This document shows, piece by piece, positions 46,135-57,800 of a DNA stretch of 64,000 nucleotides; positions within the stretch are counted from its first letter, which is position 1; every line of letters starts with the position of its first letter. The notes beneath the pieces were generated by a model. That model was not told the origin of the DNA, did no database searches, and saw only the letters and a program-made list of their open reading frames with translations. The DNA lies in the NCBI GenBank assembly GCA_035327305.1, contig DAOLDL010000001.1:85561-149560 (forward strand), in the 5' to 3' direction. The stretch is from Kiritimatiellia bacterium (lineage in GTDB: Bacteria > Verrucomicrobiota > Kiritimatiellia > CAIVKH01). The position numbers and the translations under genes were made by a program.

Positions 46135-46170
46135 TTGATACTTCCGATATATACAATTATAAATATCGGA
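46135..46170 (+). promoter_or_regulatory. ModE-box operator overlapping a putative promoter
   Basis: TCCGATATATA-CAATTA-TAAATATCGGA (46143-46170) matches CGNTATATA-N6-TATATANCG; TTGATA-N17-TATAAA overlaps it; directly before modE-modABC. Confidence 0.85.
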
Positions 46171-46524
46171 ATGAGAGTTCAACTCAAAGTGGTGCTGGCT
46201 GATCGTCGGCACAATGAGTTTTGCGGGCCTGGTCTTATACAGCTGCTCAAAGGTATCCGTCGCAGGGGATCCATTCAACAGGCCGCGAAGGAAATGCGCC
46301 TGTCTTATGTAAAGGCGCTTAAGATACTAAGTCGTCTCGAAAAGGCGCTGGGTCAACCCGTCCTGATCAGGCACAAGGGAGGCGCGACACGCGGAAACTC
46401 CACTCTGACACCGTATGCCCTGCGTTTCATGCGTGACTTTACTTCATTAACCAATGATATCCAGCGAACAGTGACCGCTTCATCCAGGGGTTTCATTAAA
46501 AAGTACAAAAAGGAAAATGCATGA
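46171..46524 (+). CDS. modE: ModE-type winged-helix regulator (no TOBE/Mop domains)
   Basis: GPG.IQLL.GI...GSI.QAAKEM.LSY.KA, HKGGATRG...LT; 117 aa from ATG 46171. Confidence 0.85.
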   Translation: MRVQLKVVLADRRHNEFCGPGLIQLLKGIRRRGSIQQAAKEMRLSYVKALKILSRLEKALGQPVLIRHKGGATRGNSTLTPYALRFMRDFTSLTNDIQRTVTASSRGFIKKYKKENA

Positions 46525-47285
46525 AATGCCTTGGCCTCAAAGTATTACTCATTCTTTTGATGTTTGGTATCGATGCGCGCGCCGGTGACCGCATCACCAT
46601 AGCCGCCGCATCCGATCTGCGTTATGCGCTTAACGATATCGTGTCACTGTTCCAGCAACAATACCCCTCTGCCGGGATCGACGTAATCTTTGGATCGTCC
46701 GGCAAAATAACCACCCAGATCGTGAACGGCGCTCCGTACGATATCTTCTTCTCCGCCGATGTCGAATTCCCAAAGCGCCTGCATCGTGACGGGTTAACCG
46801 CAACGGAACCGAGTGTGTATGCCATCGGACGCATCGTATTGTGGAGCAAGCGGCACAACGCTTCAGTCATGACGCTTCACGACTTGGTCGACCCGTCGAT
46901 TCGCCGCATTGCCATTGCACAACCAATGCACGCTCCATACGGACAACGCGCAAAGGAAGCGCTTATGGCCGTCGGCATCTGGAATGACATCCAATCCAAA
47001 CTCGTTTTTGCGGAAAATATAGCGTCTGCCGCGCAGATGACGGAGTCCGAGGCGGCGGACGCAGGAATTATTGCGTTGTCGCTTGCACTTTTCCCCGATC
47101 TCGCAAGGCACGGTTACCATTTGATTGATGACGCCCTGCATCAACCGCTGACGCAAGGTTATGTAATCACCAAGTACGGGAAGGACAATTCATTGGCGCA
47201 CGAATTTGCGCGTTTCATGACGCAGGAGGCGGCCATAACAATCATGGAGCACTATGGCTTTGTCTTGCCGGGAAGGCATCCGTGA
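46521..47285 (+). CDS. modA: Molybdate ABC transporter substrate-binding protein
   Basis: IAAASDL, FGSSG, DIFFSAD, APYG..A, FAENI. Confidence 0.95.
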   Translation: MKCLGLKVLLILLMFGIDARAGDRITIAAASDLRYALNDIVSLFQQQYPSAGIDVIFGSSGKITTQIVNGAPYDIFFSADVEFPKRLHRDGLTATEPSVYAIGRIVLWSKRHNASVMTLHDLVDPSIRRIAIAQPMHAPYGQRAKEALMAVGIWNDIQSKLVFAENIASAAQMTESEAADAGIIALSLALFPDLARHGYHLIDDALHQPLTQGYVITKYGKDNSLAHEFARFMTQEAAITIMEHYGFVLPGRHP

Positions 47286-47321
47286 AGGAACAGCACCGCA
47301 ACTGATATCGACGGAGATGAC

Positions 47322-48008
47322 ATGTTCAATCTGGCGCCATCCGACATAATAGCCATTCAGCTCACGTTAAAGCTTGGTTTGTACACCACGTGTATTCTTC
47401 TGGTGATCGGTACACCCCTTGCATGGTGGCTTGCCAACGGGCGTTCTTCTTTGCGCATTGCTGTCCAATCGGTCGTGGCCCTGCCGCTCGTGTTGCCGCC
47501 CACGGTATTAGGATTTTATCTTCTGCTTCTGCTTGGACCGCGCGGATGGGTTGGAAGTACACTCGAAGCAATGGGGTTTACGCACCTTGCATTTACATTC
47601 ACCGGTATTCTGATCGGATCGGTTTTTTACTCCATGCCATTTGCGATACAACCCCTGTACCAGGCTTTTTCGTCGCTCGGCCGCCGACATGTTGAAGTGG
47701 CCGCTTCGCTTGGTGCGGGACCCATTGATCGTTTTTTTACGGTGATTCTGCCACTGACACGTGGCGGTTTTATCGTTGCCGCCACGTTGAGTTTCGCCCA
47801 CACGCTCGGCGAGTTCGGCGCAATCCTGATGATTGGCGGCAGTATTCCGGGACGGACAAAAGTATTGTCGGTCTTGATTTACGATCATGCCGAGGCAATG
47901 AACTACGCGGGGGCGCATAAATTATCCATACTGCTACTGTCCATAGCGTTCATTGTACTTTTTATCGTGTATGCCGTTAACCGTCGTTTTGATTCCATTC
48001 GGCCATGA
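47322..48008 (+). CDS. modB: Molybdate ABC transporter permease
   Basis: LPLVLPPTVLGFYLL, YSMPFA.QP, FAHTLGEFG...MIGG.IPG.T. Confidence 0.96.
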   Translation: MFNLAPSDIIAIQLTLKLGLYTTCILLVIGTPLAWWLANGRSSLRIAVQSVVALPLVLPPTVLGFYLLLLLGPRGWVGSTLEAMGFTHLAFTFTGILIGSVFYSMPFAIQPLYQAFSSLGRRHVEVAASLGAGPIDRFFTVILPLTRGGFIVAATLSFAHTLGEFGAILMIGGSIPGRTKVLSVLIYDHAEAMNYAGAHKLSILLLSIAFIVLFIVYAVNRRFDSIRP

Positions 48009-49120
48009 ACCTTGAAATTACCGCTCGATTACACGTTGGTTCGTTTACACTCGATGTAAACAGTTCCTTCCCACTTCAGGGTGTAACGGCGCTGTTCGGG
48101 CGATCCGGTTGCGGGAAGACGACACTGCTCCGTGTCATTGCCGGTCTGGAGCGACCGCGCAATGCGATTGTGCGTTATGGTGAGCAGATATGGCAGGACG
48201 AGAATTTGTTTGTTCCTCTGGCCCGACGTCGGATCGGATTGGTTTTCCAGGAGCACAGTTTGTTGCCGCATCGCAACGTGCGTGGAAATCTGGAATACGG
48301 TTACCGCCGAACACCGCCGGCTCTCCGCCGTCTGCACCTGGATAATGTATGCGACCTGCTCGGAATTGGTAACTTGCTTGACCGGCGGGTCGATCAATTA
48401 TCCGGGGGACAACGCCAGCGTGTTGCGCTGGGGCGAGCATTGCTGTGCAGTCCGCAAGTGCTATTGCTTGATGAGCCTCTCGCGGCGCTTGATACGCAAA
48501 CAAAACGCGAGATCATGCCGTTTCTCACCCGGTTGTCCCGTGATGCCGGCGTGCCCATCCTCCTTGTCACCCATGTTCCCGACGAAGTAGAACGGCTTGC
48601 TGATCGTGTCGCGTTTATGCGAAATGGCCGCGTGGAGCGGGTGGAGGATTTGCGCGATGCGCTCACGCGTCCCGACTCCTTGTTATTTGACGAAGAAGGG
48701 CCAGTGTCAGTTTTGGAAGGAACGTTATCCGGTCCCGACAGGGATGGGCTGTGCCAAATCGATTGTGAGGGTGTGATGTTGCGCATTCCCGATCCGGGGG
48801 GGATCACAGACAAGTGGCCTAGGCGTTTACGTATTCGTGCTCGTGATGTGATCCTGGCAGTGGGCGATCCCAAAGGAATAAGCGTTGTCAACCATTTGCC
48901 GGTGGAGATTGAATCCATTTATCCAGGACCACGCGGTGAATGCCTGGTGGTAACCCGTCTCGCCAACGGACAGAAACTGCTGGCGCATATTACCACTGCT
49001 TCCCAACACCGCCTCGGTCTCGTAGCCGGAGGACAATGCATTGCCCTTATCAAATCACTTGCAATGCATGTGGCATCCTCATCGTCGGGTCAATCGGGTC
49101 AAACCATGCATACTGAATAA
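48005..49120 (+). CDS. modC: Molybdate ABC transporter ATP-binding protein
   Basis: GRSGCGKTT, LSGGQRQRVALGRAL, LLLDEP, C-terminal TOBE region. Confidence 0.96.
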   Translation: MNLEITARLHVGSFTLDVNSSFPLQGVTALFGRSGCGKTTLLRVIAGLERPRNAIVRYGEQIWQDENLFVPLARRRIGLVFQEHSLLPHRNVRGNLEYGYRRTPPALRRLHLDNVCDLLGIGNLLDRRVDQLSGGQRQRVALGRALLCSPQVLLLDEPLAALDTQTKREIMPFLTRLSRDAGVPILLVTHVPDEVERLADRVAFMRNGRVERVEDLRDALTRPDSLLFDEEGPVSVLEGTLSGPDRDGLCQIDCEGVMLRIPDPGGITDKWPRRLRIRARDVILAVGDPKGISVVNHLPVEIESIYPGPRGECLVVTRLANGQKLLAHITTASQHRLGLVAGGQCIALIKSLAMHVASSSSGQSGQTMHTE

Positions 49121-49222: not shown

Positions 49223-50566
49223 ATGGATTCATATTTGATCCGCAGTCGTCACGTTGTGCTTCCGGGTGAAGTTATCTCCGGAAGCATTCATGTGGCAGGG
49301 GAGAAAATAGCGGGAATATTCAGGGAAAATCAACCATTGCCGACCGCGCCAGTCATCGATGTTGGAGATGACTGGATATTGCCCGGGCTGGTGGATACGC
49401 ATGTCCATATCAATGAACCCGGCCGGACGGAATGGGAGGGGTTTCATACCGCGACAGCATCAGCCGTGGCCGGCGGCATTACCACGCTGGTTGACATGCC
49501 GCTTAACAGCAGTCCGGTTACCACCACACTGGAAGCATTTGAAATAAAGCTTGCGGCCGCCCGGGCGCCGGGTCAATTGGCCGTTGACTGTGGATTTCAT
49601 GCCGGGCTGATCCCGGGTAATGAAAAGGATATTCCCTCCTTATTGAAAAAAGGCGTTCTTGGCGTCAAAGCTTTCATGGTTTATTCAGGCATCCCGGATT
49701 TTCCAGCGGCAACTCAAAAGGAATTGGCGGCGGTTATGCCAGTGCTTGCCAAGCATAACGTCCCATTGCTTGCTCATGCAGAATTGGACGGACCGGTATT
49801 GGTGCCCGACGGAGATGATAGAAGTTATCGACGCTATCTCGCCTCGCGGCCATCCGAGTGGGAGGTGGATGCCATCGGGATGTTGATTGCCTTGTGTCGT
49901 GAAACACGTTGTCCAATTCACATCGTTCATCTCGCCACCCGTGATGCCCTTGAATTGATTCGCGAGGCAAAAGCGGAAGGACTGCCGCTCACCGTGGAAA
50001 CGTGTCCGCATTATTTATATTTTTGTGCGGAGGAAATCCCGGATGGCAAAACACAATACAAATGCGCTCCGCCTATAAGGGAAAAGGAGCATCGGGAGGC
50101 ATTGTGGAATGCATTGCTGTCGGGAGAAATTGATATGATTGCTTCCGATCATTCGCCTTGTCCGCCATCCATGAAAGAACTGGAAAGTGGTAATTTTGCC
50201 AAGGCATGGGGCGGAATATCATCCCTGCAATTGGGTTTGCCTATAATCTGGACTCAATGTCGCAAACGCGGGATTCCGTTGGAAAATATCAGTGCCTGGA
50301 TGAGTAGGAATCCGGCAATATTAGCAGGTTTGTATCCGCAGAAGGGCGTGCTTGAAGCGGGTTCAGATGCGGATTTTGCGATCTTTGACCCGGAAAAAGC
50401 TTTTACTGTCGATGCAAACCGATTGGCTCACCGACATAAAATCACGCCTTATGCAGACGAAAAACTTTACGGCCAGATTAAAAAAACATATCTTCGCGGT
50501 CGTGTTGTATATGACGCAGAACAGGGTGGTTGCGAATATTTGGGGCGAATTATCCTCCATCCGTAA
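49223..50566 (+). CDS. allB: Allantoinase (metal-dependent amidohydrolase)
   Basis: PGLVDTHVHINEPGRTEWEGF, GGITTLVDMPLNS, GVKAF, HAE, VETCPHYL, KCAPPIR, SDHSP, WGGISSLQLGL. Confidence 0.95.
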   Translation: MDSYLIRSRHVVLPGEVISGSIHVAGEKIAGIFRENQPLPTAPVIDVGDDWILPGLVDTHVHINEPGRTEWEGFHTATASAVAGGITTLVDMPLNSSPVTTTLEAFEIKLAAARAPGQLAVDCGFHAGLIPGNEKDIPSLLKKGVLGVKAFMVYSGIPDFPAATQKELAAVMPVLAKHNVPLLAHAELDGPVLVPDGDDRSYRRYLASRPSEWEVDAIGMLIALCRETRCPIHIVHLATRDALELIREAKAEGLPLTVETCPHYLYFCAEEIPDGKTQYKCAPPIREKEHREALWNALLSGEIDMIASDHSPCPPSMKELESGNFAKAWGGISSLQLGLPIIWTQCRKRGIPLENISAWMSRNPAILAGLYPQKGVLEAGSDADFAIFDPEKAFTVDANRLAHRHKITPYADEKLYGQIKKTYLRGRVVYDAEQGGCEYLGRIILHP

Positions 50567-50598: not shown

Positions 50599-51591
50599 AT
50601 GAGTCACAATGCTAATAATACGGCTTCGTTTGCCGGCTTCATTGACCTTGCATCAGAAAAAATCGGAGGCAAAACCTTGTCCGCCAACGATGAGTTCTTC
50701 GCCGAGAAGGAGAATCTTCTCAAAGAAGGTCGTGGAATATTCATCGCGGACAAATTTACCGACCGCGGCAAATGGATGGATGGTTGGGAAACCCGTCGCA
50801 AGCGGACGCCCGGTCACGACTGGTGTATTGTCGAGCTTGGTTTGCCCGGAGTAATTCACGGTGTCGATATCGACACGAACCATTTTCTCGGCAACAACCC
50901 GGCATTTGCATCAATTGACGCGGCCATGAGCGCACATGGTGAATGGACGGAAATACTTCCTCGGTCGCCATTGAATCCCGGAGCACAAAATCTGTTTGCC
51001 ATTGGAAGCCGCACACCGTGGACGCATCTTCGATTGAACATTTATCCGGACGGCGGTGTTGCCCGTTTTCGGGTATACGGGGATGTTTACAAGGATTGGA
51101 CCAATGCCGACCCTGCTGAAACCATAGATCTGGCCGCGTTGGCCAACGGCGGCAAAGCGGTCGCGTGCAGTGACATGTTTTTCAGCTCCATGCACAATCT
51201 GATCATGCCGGGTCGCGCCGCCAATATGGGGGATGGCTGGGAAACAAAACGCCGCCGCGGCATGGGTTATGATTGGGTGATTGTCAAGCTGGCCCGGCCC
51301 GGTATCATAAGCCAGTTGGAGGTGGACACCAATCACTTCAAGGGAAATTATCCCGATGAGTGTTCGATGGATGCCTGTCTGGCTCCCGATGAAAACATCG
51401 ATATTCTGACCTGGAATGATGTTGAGTGGGTTCAAGTCTTGCCGCGTACAAAGTTGCAAGCGCACCATCAACATTATTTCGACCGCGACTTGAAAAACAA
51501 GGGGCCCTTTTCGCACGTCAAACTCAATATTTTCCCCGATGGCGGCATTAGCCGGTTGCGGGTATTGGGGAATGTCGCCGCGGGTATCTGA
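50599..51591 (+). CDS. alc: Allantoicase
   Basis: Two repeats with DGWETRRKR.PGHDW and DTNHF.GN, RLNIYPDGGVARFRVYG. Confidence 0.96.
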   Translation: MSHNANNTASFAGFIDLASEKIGGKTLSANDEFFAEKENLLKEGRGIFIADKFTDRGKWMDGWETRRKRTPGHDWCIVELGLPGVIHGVDIDTNHFLGNNPAFASIDAAMSAHGEWTEILPRSPLNPGAQNLFAIGSRTPWTHLRLNIYPDGGVARFRVYGDVYKDWTNADPAETIDLAALANGGKAVACSDMFFSSMHNLIMPGRAANMGDGWETKRRRGMGYDWVIVKLARPGIISQLEVDTNHFKGNYPDECSMDACLAPDENIDILTWNDVEWVQVLPRTKLQAHHQHYFDRDLKNKGPFSHVKLNIFPDGGISRLRVLGNVAAGI

Positions 51592-51596
51592 CGTTC

Positions 51597-52103
51597 ATGA
51601 ATATTGCGGAATTAAATAATCTGGATGTCCGCGACGTCGAGGAACATTTTCTTCGATGTTGCGGTTGTCGCGAATGGGCAAGGAAAATGGCTGAAGGTCG
51701 CCCGTATCAATCGGTTGATGCGGTTTGTGCGGCGGCGGATCGCACATGGGATGCGTTGAGTCAGGATAACTGGCTGGAAGCGTATACGGCACATCCGCGA
51801 ATTGGCGATATTAACAGCCTGCGCAAGAAATTTGCCAACACCAAGGAATGGGCATCCGGGGAACAATCCGGAGTTCAATCCGCCACAGATCAAGTGATCC
51901 AGGCTTTGGCGGATGGGAATAACGCATACGAAAAAAAGTTTGGCTTTATATTTATTGTTTGCGCCACCGGAAAAAGCGCGGATGAAATGTTGTCTTTGCT
52001 GACGGTGCGGCTGAACAACAACCGCGACCAGGAAATTGCCAATGCCGGTGAAGAGCAAAAGAAAATCACTCGCATACGCATTGATAAATGGTTGAAGGAT
52101 TGA
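51597..52103 (+). CDS. uraD: OHCU decarboxylase
   Basis: CCG..W, RPY, LEAYTAHPRIG, EQSG, N..YEKKFGFIFIVCATG, EQ.KIT.IR. Confidence 0.94.
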   Translation: MNIAELNNLDVRDVEEHFLRCCGCREWARKMAEGRPYQSVDAVCAAADRTWDALSQDNWLEAYTAHPRIGDINSLRKKFANTKEWASGEQSGVQSATDQVIQALADGNNAYEKKFGFIFIVCATGKSADEMLSLLTVRLNNNRDQEIANAGEEQKKITRIRIDKWLKD

Positions 52104-52129: not shown

Positions 52130-53575
52130 ATGACACAACGTACCCTATCGGCCAAAACGCTTGGCGACGTACTTTCCGGATTGAAAAAGGCAAACGACAG
52201 GTTCGCCGTTTGGTATCCCGGTGAATCTCCGGCCCGCCAACCGGTTCAAACCGTTTATGGTGGCGCCCACTTGTTCAAAGCCGAAGCGGCAAGAAGACTG
52301 GGAGATGTGGCGCTGAAAAGTCTGGCGGAAAATGCCCCGGACTTTGCCACATTTGCCCGGGCGCTTAAGCTTCCCGGTTGCGAGAGACTGCCGAAAAATG
52401 CCGCCGGACTCAAAAAATTTGTAATCGACATTAAACGCGATGAGGCGAAGGTAAAGAAATCCAATCCCGAGGGTTGGCTTCTTTATACGGTTTATGAGCG
52501 CGTGGTCGAAAAATTAAAGCGCGAGCCGGTGGAGGATTTCCGCATTGATTTTGAAGACGGTTATGGAAACCGTCCTGATGCCGAGGAAGATCGTCAGGCC
52601 GCCATTGCCGCCGCGGAAGTTGCAAAAGGAATGAAGTTGGGTTCGCTTCCTCCATTCATTGGAATTCGCATCAAACCGTTTACCCAGGAATTGAAAAAGC
52701 GCGCGATAGCGACGTTGGATATCTTTGTAACGGAATTGATCAAGCTTACCGGCGGGAAATTGCCGGAGAACTTTGTTGTAACGCTTCCCAAAGTCACTTT
52801 GCCGGAACATGTAACGGCCGCGGTTCGTTTGTTCGAGGAACTTGAGCGCAAGCTCAAGTTGAAGAAGGGTATGCTGAAGTGCGAATTGATGATTGAAACG
52901 CCGCAATCCATTATCAATCACGAAGGCAATTGCAATGTCTCGCTATTGGTAAAGGCGGCTGAAGGCCGTTGCACCGGCGCTCATTTCGGCGTCTATGATT
53001 ACACCGCATCCTGCAGTATTACCGCCGCGCACCAGCGCATGAACCATCTGGCCTGCGATTTTGCCCGCCACATGATGAAGGTGTCATTGGCCGGAACGGG
53101 AATATGGATTTCCGACGGCGCGACCAACATCATGCCGGTGGGACCGAACCGGGCTGAACCGGGCAAGAAGTTGTCGCCACGCCAAGTTGCAGAAAACCGT
53201 GAAGTCGTGCATCGCGCATGGCGCATCATGCTTGAGCATGTCAATCATTCACTTGAACAGGCATACTACCAGGGCTGGGACCTCCATCCGGCGCAATTCT
53301 GCATCCGCTATGCGGCTGTTTATTATTTCTTCCTGAATGGATTAACCGAGGCGTCGGTACGTCTCAAGACCTTTATCGAAAAAGCCGCGCAGGCGACGCT
53401 GATTGGCGATGTTTTTGATGACGCGGCCACGGGGCAGGGACTGTTGAATTACTTCCTGCGCGGAATCAATTGCGGGGCAATCACCGAGGAGGAAGCACGG
53501 ATGACCGGTTTGTCCATTGAGGAACTTCACGCCCGGTCGTTTGTTAAAATACTTGAAGCACGTTGCATGAGGTAA
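52130..53575 (+). CDS. Malate-synthase/CitE-fold (HpcH/HpaI aldolase-citrate lyase superfamily; DUF6986-like) protein
   Basis: RQPVQTVYGGAHLF, DFRIDFEDGYG, LPKV, MIETPQS, HFGVYDY, SDGATN, QGWDLHP. Confidence 0.75.
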   Translation: MTQRTLSAKTLGDVLSGLKKANDRFAVWYPGESPARQPVQTVYGGAHLFKAEAARRLGDVALKSLAENAPDFATFARALKLPGCERLPKNAAGLKKFVIDIKRDEAKVKKSNPEGWLLYTVYERVVEKLKREPVEDFRIDFEDGYGNRPDAEEDRQAAIAAAEVAKGMKLGSLPPFIGIRIKPFTQELKKRAIATLDIFVTELIKLTGGKLPENFVVTLPKVTLPEHVTAAVRLFEELERKLKLKKGMLKCELMIETPQSIINHEGNCNVSLLVKAAEGRCTGAHFGVYDYTASCSITAAHQRMNHLACDFARHMMKVSLAGTGIWISDGATNIMPVGPNRAEPGKKLSPRQVAENREVVHRAWRIMLEHVNHSLEQAYYQGWDLHPAQFCIRYAAVYYFFLNGLTEASVRLKTFIEKAAQATLIGDVFDDAATGQGLLNYFLRGINCGAITEEEARMTGLSIEELHARSFVKILEARCMR

Positions 53576-53579
53576 GTCT

Positions 53580-53930
53580 ATGAAACGTTCTCCCATCACC
53601 ACGCATGTCCTGGATACGGCCACCGGATCGCCTGCGTCAGGCGTTCCGGTACGTTTGTACTACGAAGAATCGCCTGATAAATGGATGATACTTGCCACGG
53701 GAATAACCAACGATGACGGTCGGGTGGGGGAATTGCTTCCTGTCGACCATTCACTCAAGCCGGGCAAATACCGGATGCGGTTTAACACCGAAGAGTATTT
53801 CATGGCAAATCAGGTCACCGGATTTTATCCGTATGCCGATGTTGTATTTGTCATTACTGATACCAGGCCGCATTACCACATTCCCCTGTTGTTGAGTCCG
53901 TTCGGGTATTCGACATACCGGGGAAGTTGA
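53580..53930 (+). CDS. uraH: 5-hydroxyisourate hydrolase (transthyretin-like)
   Basis: ITTHVLDT..G.PA, TNDDGR, HYHIPLLLSPFGYSTYRGS. Confidence 0.96.
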   Translation: MKRSPITTHVLDTATGSPASGVPVRLYYEESPDKWMILATGITNDDGRVGELLPVDHSLKPGKYRMRFNTEEYFMANQVTGFYPYADVVFVITDTRPHYHIPLLLSPFGYSTYRGS

Positions 53931-53949: not shown

Positions 53950-54768
53950 TTACCACGGTTTCTTTTTGCAATTGGAAAGTCCCTGGCGACGCCAGGCATC
54001 AGGACTGATGCCCCGGATCTGACTGAAGACGCGACAAAAGTCGCTTCCGCTGGAGAATCCACAATCGCGGGCGACGCCATCGATTTTTGCCGAGGAATTC
54101 ACCAGCAGGTCCATGGCGCGTTCTATCTTTATATTGGTGAATGTGCGTTGCGGGCTTTCCCCGCGAACGAGATGAAAAAGCCGGCGAAGATGCCGAACAG
54201 ATAAATTGGCCGAACGTGCGACATCTTCCAGCTTGGGACGTTCCGCCATGTGCTCCAGATACCAGGCAATGCAAGCATCGACCTTTCTTGCATTGAAATC
54301 GACATCTTGGGGGATGGGTTTGAAATCCATTCCGGCAACCGCCATCAGACAAAAATCCAATAATGCGCGATTGAATATCAGCATACTTTCCTCGGTTATT
54401 TTCTGATAATGACGGACAAGTATACCTGTGTCCCGTGATAGTTGCTGACATTGCTGACGGGACAGCGATGCGGTTAAATATCCCGTTTGATCCACCAGTT
54501 TCCGGATCAAAGACGGAACGGAAGAAAAATGGAAAACCGCAATTTCACATGCGTCATTTTTCCAGCCATGCCAGCCGTGAGGTGTTTCGGGTGGGAACAC
54601 CCATAACGTGCGGGTGCGGAAGGGTTGATTTGTGTCCGGTATCGTATAATCGAATACCGGACGGCACTTGCCCGATAATACAAAGAAAAACTCCCAGTTT
54701 AAACGCCGATGCACATACATCGGGGTTATTCCAAACCGGCGTTCCCCATGATTCACATACCGAAGCAT
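53950..54768 (-). CDS. AraC family transcriptional regulator (cupin + two HTH)
   Basis: H....WEFFFVLSG cupin; LEDVA...LS.RHLRRLF; A..LL......I..VA..CGF...S.F.R.F....G.SP..WR. Confidence 0.92.
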   Translation of the reverse strand: MLRYVNHGERRFGITPMYVHRRLNWEFFFVLSGKCRPVFDYTIPDTNQPFRTRTLWVFPPETPHGWHGWKNDACEIAVFHFSSVPSLIRKLVDQTGYLTASLSRQQCQQLSRDTGILVRHYQKITEESMLIFNRALLDFCLMAVAGMDFKPIPQDVDFNARKVDACIAWYLEHMAERPKLEDVARSANLSVRHLRRLFHLVRGESPQRTFTNIKIERAMDLLVNSSAKIDGVARDCGFSSGSDFCRVFSQIRGISPDAWRRQGLSNCKKKPW

Positions 54769-54861
54769 CCGGATAGAATTATCCTGTATGGCCGAAAATG
54801 TAAAGTATGCGTCCTTACTTTTCTCTATATGAAAATACCTGAAGTCGGTATGTTAATGCCC

Positions 54862-57800
54862 ATGAGTGACAGATCGATGCTATTTCGGGGCGGCATTTTG
54901 TTGTTGGTTGTAATGGGTGGAAGTTTCAATCTTTCACCGGCGCTAGCCGATCCACATACCATTTTCGGCGGAGTAGTGGTCATTGAAGTCGAATCCTTTC
55001 ACACCAATATTTCGCCCCGAGGCGCTCATTCGTGGGTTTTCACCAACAGCATCAGCTCCTACAGCGGAAACGGCTACATGGAAGCAATGCCCAATAACGA
55101 TGCGATCATTCAAACCAATCTTTCCGCAAACAGCCCGGAGTTGCGTTACGACGTTCTTTTCAGAAGTAATATGATTCATCATGTATGGGTCAGGGGATGG
55201 GCAAATTCCGGCGCAGACGACTCCATACATTTTGGTGTAAGCAGTTCACCAAATCTGGCAACGCCTTTGACATGGCCCGCGACCGGTGAATGGTACTGGA
55301 CAAATCTACATCATGCGACATCCGGTCAAGTTACCATGATGCCGGGAGCGACCGGCATTGTTTCGTGCAGTATCTGGATGCGCGAGGATGGCGCAAGAAT
55401 AGATCGTTTTGTACTGACGACCAATGCGGGTTTCCGTCCGCGCAAAGGCAACGCATGGCATATTCCACCCAATCAACAACCGTTGGGGCAACATGCCATG
55501 CGCACTCCATTTATGGCCATATTCACCAATACGCCCGTGACAATATTCAGTGGAAGTCAATTTCAAGGCGCTGGGAATCCTGGAAATCAATTGCAAGTCG
55601 GCAGTACAATATTCTACAGGTCATCGACCAGCACGGTGTGGAAATCGGTTGCCATGACATTTCACAGTGAAAGCGGGAATGACAAATTTTACTCCGGAGT
55701 GATTCCGCCCGGTGAGTTCAACGAAAATGATCATGTTGATTACTACATTCAAGTTCCCTTCAGTGATTTTCTTCCGACGTATTTGTACACAGCGGGAGGA
55801 GTGGCGCAGTCCACGGAATTCGAGGAAGTCGCAAGAGCCAATCCATACCGTTTCAAGGTATTGCCGATGCCTGATGCCGGTTATTCCTCCCCTCCGGATT
55901 GGCGGGACATTAACATTTACCAGATTTTTACGGATCGTTTTTATGATGGCGATCCGTCAAACAACAACAGTCACCCGGAGTCGCCATACAACCCCGCCGT
56001 AAGCAACCGCATTCATGGCGGTGATTTCCGTGGAATTGAGAAAAAGCTGGATTACATAAAAGCGCTTGGAGCAAACGCAATTTGGATCAAACCGATTCAT
56101 TTGAATGCGGTTCACTCCGCTTATCATGGATATGGAGCCCAGGATTTTTATCAGTTGAATCCGAATCTTGGAACCATGGCGGACTTAACCAGCATGGTGG
56201 CGGCGGCTCATGCCCGGGATATTCGCGTTATTCTTGATATCGTATGCAATCATCAGGGGCGGCGTATTTACAGTACGGATCCCGGATGGCCTACGTATAA
56301 TGCATCCGGATACAATCTTGCCTGGACCAACGAAACAGCCTATCCGACGCCATTTAATTCGCTGACGAATTTTCACAATTTCGGGCGAATTGGTAATTTC
56401 GATGATCCAAATCAGCTTGTATTGGGTGCGCTTAGCGGCCTTGACGATCTCAAAACCGAGACACATTACGTGCGCACCAACATGGTTGAAATATTCAAAT
56501 ACTGGATTCAGATGGCGGATTTTGACGGCTTTCGTATCGATACGGTCAAACATGTGGAAATTGGATTCTGGCGTTTCTTCAACAATGAGATCCGTTTGTT
56601 CGCCAAAGCCATGGGAAAAACCAATTTCATCCAATTTGGCGAAGTGTTTCATTCAGCGGAAAGCACGGTCGGATATTATACCGGAACACAATCCGGCGGC
56701 GCCTATGCGAACGATACGGTTCTGAATTTCCCGCTATATGAAAGGATGAACAGCGTATTCGGCAATGCATCGGGGAACACCAAACAGATTGAAGATCATT
56801 ACACCGCCATTCCCCCCAATTTTCATCCTGACTCGCACATGCGATTGATCAACTTTATCGACAACCATGACGTCATTCGCTTCATGCATTCCAGCAAGGC
56901 GAATAACAATACCAACAAGCTGGCTCTCGCGCTTTCCTTTCTGTACACATCACGAGGAATTCCATGTCTGTATTATGGGACGGAGCAAAACTTCAACGGG
57001 GGCAATGATCCGGGCAATCGTGAAGATATGTTCCACGGTCAGTACGAGCAGGGACCATCGCTGGGAGACAATTACAACATGTCGGGCGGATCATTTTTGC
57101 ATGTGGCAAAGATGAATAACTTCCGGCGGTTGTATCCATCGTTGTTGCGTGGACAACATTTGAACCGTTGGAACACACCTGACGGACCGGGAATATTTTC
57201 CTATGCCCGACGTCAGGATGGACAGGAAATACTTGTGATCCTGAATACGGCATCCGGCTTGCGATCACTTACGAACCGTGCATCGTTTTATGCGCCTGGT
57301 ACGGAGATGGTGAATTTACTAAACACCAATGAAATCATCACGGTCAATGCGATGACCAACACACCGGTGATACACGTGCCGGCATTTTCCGCAAAAATGT
57401 TTATCGCGAGAAATCAGTGGTTGCCACTCGATCCGTTGGTTCAAGCATTTTTACCCGGTCATGATTCGACCGGCCATTCCGTGACCAGTCCGGTAACGCT
57501 TCATTTCAGCAAACCCATGAATACCAATTTGACGGCTGGAGCATTTTCAATACAACCGCCGGTTATGGGGCGAATCGAATGGTCAAACTCCGGTACGACG
57601 CTGACCTTTACCCCGGAAGGAGCGAGTCGATTTTCCGGTGAAACGACATACACCGTGAATGTGTATGAAGCGGCGGCGGACATTGTAGATGGACTGAACT
57701 TCTACGCTCCGTTCGAAGCGAAGTTCAAAACCGAGGCAATTGCCGATAGCGATAATGACGGTATACCAGACTGGTGGATGATCGAGAAATTTGGTGCGGC

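Follow-up and report, generated by a model that had tools for sequence, protein, structure and literature searches.

A DUF6986 protein encoded between uraD and uraH in a Kiritimatiellia allantoin operon is a candidate ureidoglycolate lyase of the malate-synthase superfamily

The degradation of purines is one of the main routes of nitrogen in soils, sediments and oceans, and no gene has been assigned to the conversion of ureidoglycolate to glyoxylate in several large phyla. The textbook enzymes for this step are of the AllA type, as in Pseudomonas and in yeast (DAL3), and AllA is a beta-barrel protein. Furthermore, a malate-synthase-like protein of zebrafish (DrMSL) was shown experimentally to be a ureidoglycolate lyase (UGL), which converts (S)-ureidoglycolate to glyoxylate and urea (Percudani and colleagues, PMC10120013). 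DrMSL is without malate-synthase activity and has lost the acetyl-CoA site, its glyoxylate site is kept except for the replacements Arg276Ile and Trp365Met, and the group, which co-evolves with allantoicase, was reported as eukaryote-only (PMC10120013). Here, we analyzed a 64,000-nucleotide stretch of DNA from a Kiritimatiellia bacterium (GenBank assembly GCA_035327305.1, contig DAOLDL010000001.1, positions 85,561 to 149,560; hereafter the window), in which a gene for a protein of the Pfam family DUF6986 (PF22484), designated P0001, lies in an operon for allantoin breakdown. Our results suggest that this protein is probably a bacterial, non-orthologous ureidoglycolate lyase, catalyzing the reaction (S)-ureidoglycolate to glyoxylate and urea (EC 4.3.2.3). 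A preliminary description of the window had regarded it as an uncharacterized enzyme of malate-synthase/CitE fold that serves the last part of allantoin breakdown, and this general claim held.

The distribution of DUF6986 followed that of allantoicase, the enzyme that forms ureidoglycolate. Allantoicase was rare, being found in 11/401 genomes of the window's own phylum, 29/301 genomes of Acidobacteriota, 17/331 genomes of Bacteroidota and 0/14 control genomes. A high-scoring DUF6986 gene was present in 10/10, 26/28 and 16/16 of the allantoicase-positive genomes of these three phyla, respectively, i.e. in 52/54 (counts that exclude the centre genomes). In the Acidobacteriota sample, both genes occurred in 27 genomes, allantoicase alone in 2, DUF6986 alone in 3 and neither in 269; the unpublished genome G463 belongs both to these 27 and to the 16 malate-synthase positives given below, and all statements hold without it. 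Conversely, of 40 genomes with DUF6986, which represent about ten named lineages, 38 had allantoicase, including cases in which the two genes were not linked. Thus, DUF6986 co-evolves with allantoicase, as does the malate-synthase-like UGL class. The two genomes with allantoicase only look like cases of joint decay of both genes: the allantoicase gene of G455 contains stop codons (C21:7896-8840) and DUF6986 was not found in that genome, and in G584 both genes are split into fragments (C1:611303-615853).

We also examined the neighborhoods of homologues at 80 loci from the genome_contigs set (L004-L083), counting neighbors within 10 kb. The genes most often found there were uraH (49 loci), uraD (48), allantoicase (43) and allantoinase (42), and many of the remaining loci lay on short contigs. 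De novo clustering of the neighbors added PuuD urate oxidase (28 loci), xanthine dehydrogenase (XDH) subunits (27 loci) and classic uricase (5 loci), along with XdhC and genes for molybdenum-cofactor (Moco) biosynthesis. Whole operons of the order XDH-XDH-PuuD-allB-alc-uraD-uraH-DUF6986 were present in Bacteroidota and Ignavibacteria-like genomes (L081, L050, L078), and these imply that every step down to ureidoglycolate already has a recognized enzyme. The linkage to purine genes recurred in differing gene orders in about ten named lineages; homologues were thus strongly enriched in purine-catabolism neighborhoods, an association on which the preliminary description had staked its proposal. 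Among the recurrent neighbor families that were annotated, none was AllA, glyoxylate carboligase (gcl) or malate synthase.

Several other neighbors were considered and set aside. A role for DUF6986 as a novel urate oxidase in a vacant uricase slot was rejected, because the window's genome encodes a PuuD-type urate oxidase of 442 aa at a contig edge (G000:C96:3-1331) and homologous clusters contain PuuD or classic uricase. The PuuD homologue in 28 related loci is only about 270 aa long, corresponding to the Urate_ox_N membrane part (e.g. L083:11674-12492). Neighbors annotated as alanine dehydrogenase, taken at first as a hint of glyoxylate transamination, proved to be PntA beside PntB, and a recurrent 288-aa neighbor (13 loci) is most likely an antisense open reading frame (ORF), an artefact of crude gene calling over uraH/uraD.

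Next to the purine genes themselves, AllA and canonical malate synthase are the enzymes whose distribution bears on the function of DUF6986. AllA was found in 0/17 allantoicase genomes of Bacteroidota and 0/10 of the window's own phylum, nor was it detected in the window's genome, which is 95% complete; elsewhere, there were only weak, unlinked matches (8/40 and 5/26 genomes). On an Acinetobacter plasmid without DUF6986, AllA immediately follows alc. The preliminary description had suggested looking for mutual exclusion with aceB/gcl in allantoin clusters; with aceB/glcB, such a pattern did not hold: a canonical malate synthase was present in 16/30 DUF6986 genomes versus 109/271 others of the same sample, as well as in 8 of a mixed set of 40 DUF6986 genomes, and in G506 it lies 7 kb from DUF6986. 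Neither a canonical malate synthase nor a true gcl was found in the window's genome.

P0001 is a full-length member of DUF6986, with a score of 596 bits against a cut-off of 27 (E 3e-179) and residues 18-474 covering profile positions 1-408 of 408. Its matches to MS_TIM-barrel (PF01274; 21.4 bits, cut-off 26.4) and HpcH_HpaI (PF03328; 16.4 bits, cut-off 25) were below the gathering scores and confined to residues 216-318. The Pfam scan gave no match to PF04115 (AllA) at E <= 0.01, no NCBIfam model matched P0001, and a solved structure related by sequence was not found. By descent, therefore, the protein belongs neither to AllA nor to the malate-synthase or CitE Pfam families, but to a separate, uncharacterized family of the same superfamily. 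With about 15% identity, the earlier remark that it does not resemble AceB or GlcB overall was fair. An exhaustive HMMER search returned 2386 clusters (50% identity) at E <= 1e-3 and 613 at E <= 1e-30. The homologues are unusually conserved, with 62-84% identity among the best 120 matches, and for the few close ones with a stated source this is Kiritimatiellia, Bacteroidota, Acidobacteriota, Cyanobacteria or Spirochaetales. Their names are automatic only ("citrate lyase beta subunit" at JGI, "aldolase/citrate lyase family", and "phosphoenolpyruvate kinase" at NCBI), backed by no NCBIfam model or paper that we found, and our literature search found no relevant paper on DUF6986, PF22484 or "phosphoenolpyruvate kinase" with urate.

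To describe the fold, we used an AlphaFold2 model built from 79 diverse members, which had a predicted local distance difference test score (pLDDT) of 96.2 and a predicted template modeling score (pTM) of 0.93; it superseded a poor model from 15 sequences (pLDDT 74.7). The model consists of an N-terminal helix, an eight-stranded (beta/alpha)8 barrel and a C-terminal helical domain; between barrel strands 1 and 2, residues 53-131 (about 80) form a helical insert, which malyl-CoA lyase does not have. In comparisons against the PDB with VIA-align, the closest match was malyl-CoA lyase (4l9y; Z 28.5, root-mean-square deviation (rmsd) 2.3 Å over 291 of 314 residues), followed by human CLYBL (Z 27.5), Haloferax malate synthase (Z 24.5), E. 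coli malate synthase A (MSA; Z 23.1) and malate synthase G (Z about 21). The structural matches are thus triosephosphate-isomerase (TIM) barrels, and no AllA-type fold was among them. The fold assignment of the preliminary description was accordingly right, agreeing with the sub-threshold Pfam matches, the profile alignment described below (E 6e-5) and the Z scores of 21-28.5.

All the motifs pointed out earlier are present in P0001, namely DFED (140-143), IET (255-257), G.YDY (287-291) and GWDLHP (382-387), and they are invariant or nearly so in the 79 diverse DUF6986 members that served as our conservation and alignment set. For comparison, six canonical malate synthases were taken from genomes that also carry DUF6986, and hhalign aligned the two sets with a probability of 65% and an E value of 6e-5. 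The blocks that aligned (DUF6986/malate synthase) were FRIDFEDG/FMADFEDS, LPK/YLPK, MIET/LIET, GVYDY/GRWDY and QGWDLHP/GTWVAHP. The Mg2+ ligands E256 and D290 and the DFED-loop residues D140, E142 and D143 align with the corresponding malate-synthase motifs and are conserved in 77/79 members or more; E256, D290, W383 and R180, the last at the end of the third barrel strand, are essentially invariant. A marked difference concerns the arginine of GRWDY, which is invariant in all six malate synthases; the matching position (288) is Val in P0001 and Thr, Val, Ala, Leu or Pro in 79/79 family members, never Arg. On these grounds, D140, E142, D143, R180, K221, E256, D290, W383 and D430/D431 are the predicted metal and substrate site. 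The Asp of the malate-synthase MEDAAT motif falls opposite E455 in the hhalign alignment, while motif likeness and deeper conservation favor D430/D431, in FDDAAT, over E455 as the candidate catalytic acid. The E. coli MSA residues, which we take to be E250, D278 and D447, correspond, at numbers shifted by 3-4, to E247, D275 and D443 in the aligned malate synthases, and by this mapping Arg276 of MSA is presumably the GRWDY arginine.

The replacement of this arginine is shared with DrMSL/UGL: in both cases, a barrel of the malate-synthase superfamily is tied to purine catabolism and co-occurs with allantoicase, the metal and glyoxylate motifs are kept, and the GRWDY arginine is replaced by an aliphatic or small residue. 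However, DrMSL/UGL is a true member of the malate-synthase family, of about 62 kDa and peroxisomal, whose activity is independent of Mg2+, whereas DUF6986 is far more diverged, at about 15% identity, 481 aa and with the extra insert 53-131. AllA/DAL3 shares the proposed reaction and, on the Acinetobacter plasmid, the slot beside allantoicase, but its gene encodes about 160-170 aa rather than 481, the PF04115 match is lacking in P0001, and the distributions are close to complementary. Malyl-CoA lyase, CitE and CLYBL (4l9y, 5vxc) are the nearest in structure (Z 27-28.5, rmsd 2.3-2.4 over about 290 residues), with a barrel, a C-terminal helical lid and a DxED/E/D metal pattern, and the malyl-CoA lyase family cleaves an isosteric malyl moiety to glyoxylate; these enzymes differ in having about 300-350 aa and needing acyl-CoA, while DUF6986 adds the N-terminal helix and the insert. 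Malate synthases A, G and H (PF01274) have colinear strand-end motifs (DFED, LPK, IET, [WY]DY, W..HP) and a C-terminal helical domain (Z 21-24.5); unlike them, DUF6986 has lost the GRWDY arginine, is shorter, scores below the family threshold and freely co-occurs with canonical malate synthase. We lean towards the view that DUF6986 constitutes a third, bacterial ureidoglycolate lyase family, derived from the malate-synthase/malyl-CoA-lyase barrel on a path separate from that of eukaryotic UGL and with the same change of the GRWDY arginine. In Acidobacteriota, Bacteroidota, Verrucomicrobiota/Kiritimatiellia, Cyanobacteria and others, allantoicase would normally be paired with this enzyme.

From the observed gene, operon, fold, motif conservation and phyletic coupling, we infer the substrate and the chemistry. 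XDH, PuuD, UraH, UraD, allantoinase and allantoicase would supply (S)-ureidoglycolate, and a lyase of the malate-synthase/malyl-CoA-lyase superfamily, probably Mg2+-dependent, would stand in for the cupin-type AllA in these lineages. A metal held by E256 and D290 would bind the carboxylate and the 2-hydroxyl of the substrate, R180, which would lie near the metal together with the DFED loop, would polarize the substrate, and the departing urea would take up a proton from a conserved acid (D430/D431 or E455). Since the malyl moiety (HOOC-CH(OH)-CH2-CO-SCoA) has an aza-analogue in ureidoglycolate (HOOC-CH(OH)-NH-CO-NH2), the bond broken by the retro-Claisen machinery would be C-N and not C-C. Urease, acting downstream, would free nitrogen from the urea; this enzyme is encoded in the window's genome, so urea from a urea-releasing route would be usable nitrogen.

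The alternatives differ in the reaction that they assign to this site. A glyoxylate-disposal enzyme that uses acetyl-CoA, either a highly diverged malate synthase or a malyl-CoA lyase that runs towards synthesis, might convert purine-derived glyoxylate to malate, with ureidoglycolate decaying spontaneously or through a side activity of allantoicase. The nearest structures, which are all acyl-CoA enzymes binding glyoxylate or an oxo-acid, are consistent with this idea, as are the alignment of the malate-synthase motifs (DFED, LPK, IET, [YW]DY, GW..HP, with FDDAAT and MEDAAT as candidate acids), the lack of a canonical malate synthase and true gcl in the window's genome, and the precedent of yeast DAL7, a malate synthase inside the allantoin cluster (PMC13751858). 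However, we consider it quite unlikely, as there is no mutual exclusion with malate synthase (even within 7 kb in G506), the GRWDY arginine occurs in none of the 79 members, and the Pfam scores stay below the malate-synthase and HpcH thresholds. In addition, DUF6986 is coupled specifically to allantoicase and nearly one-to-one, whereas an enzyme that removes glyoxylate in general would be expected alongside isocitrate lyase, glycolate or amidohydrolase-type ureide routes as well. This reading would also leave almost all of these allantoicase genomes without any ureidoglycolate lyase. The preliminary description had proposed a malyl-CoA lyase, a non-orthologous malate synthase or a new ureidoglycolate lyase; of these, the ureidoglycolate lyase is favored and the malate synthase is disfavored, since canonical malate synthase co-occurs with DUF6986, the GRWDY arginine is never kept and AllA is absent or weakly matched.

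Genomic coupling shows membership in a pathway and not the reaction, and thus the substrate could also be allantoate or another ureide, the product made from ureidoglycolate could be a different one, or a bifunctional enzyme could eliminate urea and then condense the bound glyoxylate with a second substrate. The unusual conservation of the family (identities above 60% between phyla, and numerous invariant positions outside the metal site), the insert of about 80 residues (53-131) that is foreign to malyl-CoA lyase, and a distant member on plasmid pCZY between a PuuE-like deacetylase and an NCS1 permease would agree with such a role. It appears unlikely nevertheless, because the steps from xanthine to ureidoglycolate all have recognized enzymes in these operons, because the fold and conserved site fit a metal-bound 2-hydroxy- or 2-oxo-acid, which ureidoglycolate and glyoxylate both satisfy, and because the zebrafish precedent makes a simple lyase reaction sufficient. 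Finally, DUF6986 might be a conserved housekeeping enzyme with no functional tie to purine breakdown that merely lies near the operon, as its database names, its divergent subfamilies after radA or next to tsaD/tsaE and a Spirochaetales copy without nearby purine genes could suggest. We regard this as highly improbable, given that the linkage recurs in varied gene orders across about ten named lineages, that DUF6986 and allantoicase co-occur genome-wide even when unlinked, and that the names are without NCBIfam support.

Several observations nonetheless weigh against assignment of DUF6986 as a ureidoglycolate lyase. Acyl-CoA is used by every close structural neighbor, and since the window's genome is without a canonical malate synthase and true gcl, a glyoxylate-consuming role would also fill a gap there. 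W383 is kept in DUF6986, where DrMSL has Met for the matching Trp. The co-occurrence counts overstate significance, because the genomes include relatives and so are not independent samples. Weak AllA-like matches in about 15% of genomes show that AllA and DUF6986 do not strictly exclude each other. Moreover, no allantoicase-positive, clearly AllA-using genome without DUF6986 was seen in the sampled Acidobacteriota, Bacteroidota and the window's own phylum; in the absence of an in-clade example, the complementarity with AllA rests on one Acinetobacter plasmid and the textbook cases. The Spirochaetales copy has no purine genes nearby and its genome has no allantoicase, a divergent DUF6986 subgroup (42-50% identity, about 445-470 bits) is restricted to Acidobacteriota without allantoicase, and distant members lie in housekeeping regions, e.g. 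next to tsaD/tsaE. Because some members are thus outside any purine context, the DUF6986 family is not wholly devoted to the ureidoglycolate reaction.

If DUF6986 is a ureidoglycolate lyase, the final reaction of the urea-releasing purine pathway would no longer lack a gene in these phyla, metabolic models of Acidobacteriota, Bacteroidota and Planctomycetes-Verrucomicrobia-Chlamydiae (PVC) bacteria could be completed, and the misleading names "citrate lyase beta" and "phosphoenolpyruvate kinase" could be corrected. Besides DrMSL, it would offer another, independent example of a barrel of malate-synthase type that came to cleave C-N rather than C-C bonds, and would inform how such active sites are retuned.

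The operon itself is compact and on one strand, with the gene order allB-alc-uraD-DUF6986-uraH by Pfam scan of the window (Table 1). The ORF assigned to P0001 earlier was confirmed in its limits and length, and so was its placement between uraD and uraH, by the Pfam families of the neighbors and the small gaps: 26 nt, with a GGAGAAAGG ribosome-binding site, separate the uraD stop from the DUF6986 start, and the uraH ATG lies 4 nt past the DUF6986 stop.

Table 1. Coordinates of the DUF6986 gene and of flanking features in the window
Feature	Position	Strand	Remarks
modE-like regulator and modABC molybdate transporter (modA, modB, modC with TOBE domain)	46135..49120	+	directly upstream of, and co-directional with, the purine operon
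Allantoinase, AllB type	49223..50566	+	Amidohydro_1 and ALN composite domain (Pfam)
Allantoicase	50599..51591	+	two Allantoicase repeats (Pfam); proposed substrate supply, makes (S)-ureidoglycolate and urea
2-Oxo-4-hydroxy-4-carboxy-5-ureidoimidazoline (OHCU) decarboxylase (uraD)	51597..52103	+	Pfam
Candidate ureidoglycolate lyase, DUF6986 protein P0001	52130..53575	+	481 aa; ATG start, TAA stop
5-Hydroxyisourate (HIU) hydrolase (uraH), transthyretin family	53580..53930	+	Pfam
AraC-family regulator (cupin and HTH_18)	53950..54768	-	converges on the operon end

The modABC genes beside the purine operon fit the molybdenum requirement of xanthine dehydrogenase, which the window's genome encodes elsewhere (contigs C2 and C73), and molybdenum supply appears to be co-located with purine catabolism. 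The Moco-biosynthesis genes moaC, moaE and moeA lie within the homologous clusters of L036, L045 and L067.

Family members outside the purine context offered no functional lead, as the surroundings of the divergent "type 2" and distant members were housekeeping or phage-like. The loci of the divergent subgroup (L096-L103, in genomes G663, G715, G512, G609, G600, G731, G636 and G681) lie mostly directly after radA, near ispD/ispF, a pyrimidine-nucleoside phosphorylase, a PnrA-like binding protein and ppk, and judging from this context the subgroup probably has a different function. In the allantoicase-negative genomes G548 and G618, a 54-57%-identical DUF6986 adjoins phage-like genes (L105:4362-9257 and L106:7974-11498); a portal gene was scanned in L105 only, and a capsid-like gene was scanned in L105 with a homologue in L106. 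On the Paenarthrobacter ureafaciens plasmid pCZY (L121, 6650-10785), a distant DUF6986 (33% identity) lies between a polysaccharide-deacetylase-family gene, which belongs to the PuuE allantoinase family, and an NCS1 permease of the nucleobase/allantoin type. No allantoicase was among the genes listed for this stretch, for which the plasmid gene table is incomplete, and the pCZY protein possibly acts in another ureide or hydantoin route.

A different association was observed in Pyrinomonadaceae and Blastocatellia (e.g. L042:11823-13496, L012, L032 and L048), where a gene of about 558 aa with a weak match to Peptidase_M49 (dipeptidyl peptidase III-like) lies 3' of DUF6986 in 27/27 loci, co-directional and with a median spacing of 35 bp, even where the purine operon is elsewhere. 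This neighbor may be a functional partner or may reflect mere lineage synteny. In the window, the AraC-family gene that faces the end of the operon is a possible regulator of it. Beyond this gene, the longest form of an ORF of the glycoside hydrolase family 13 (GH13) alpha-amylase family (1145 aa, 54709-58146, plus strand) extends 60 nt into the 5' end of the divergent AraC-family gene, and the true start of the amylase gene probably lies further downstream.

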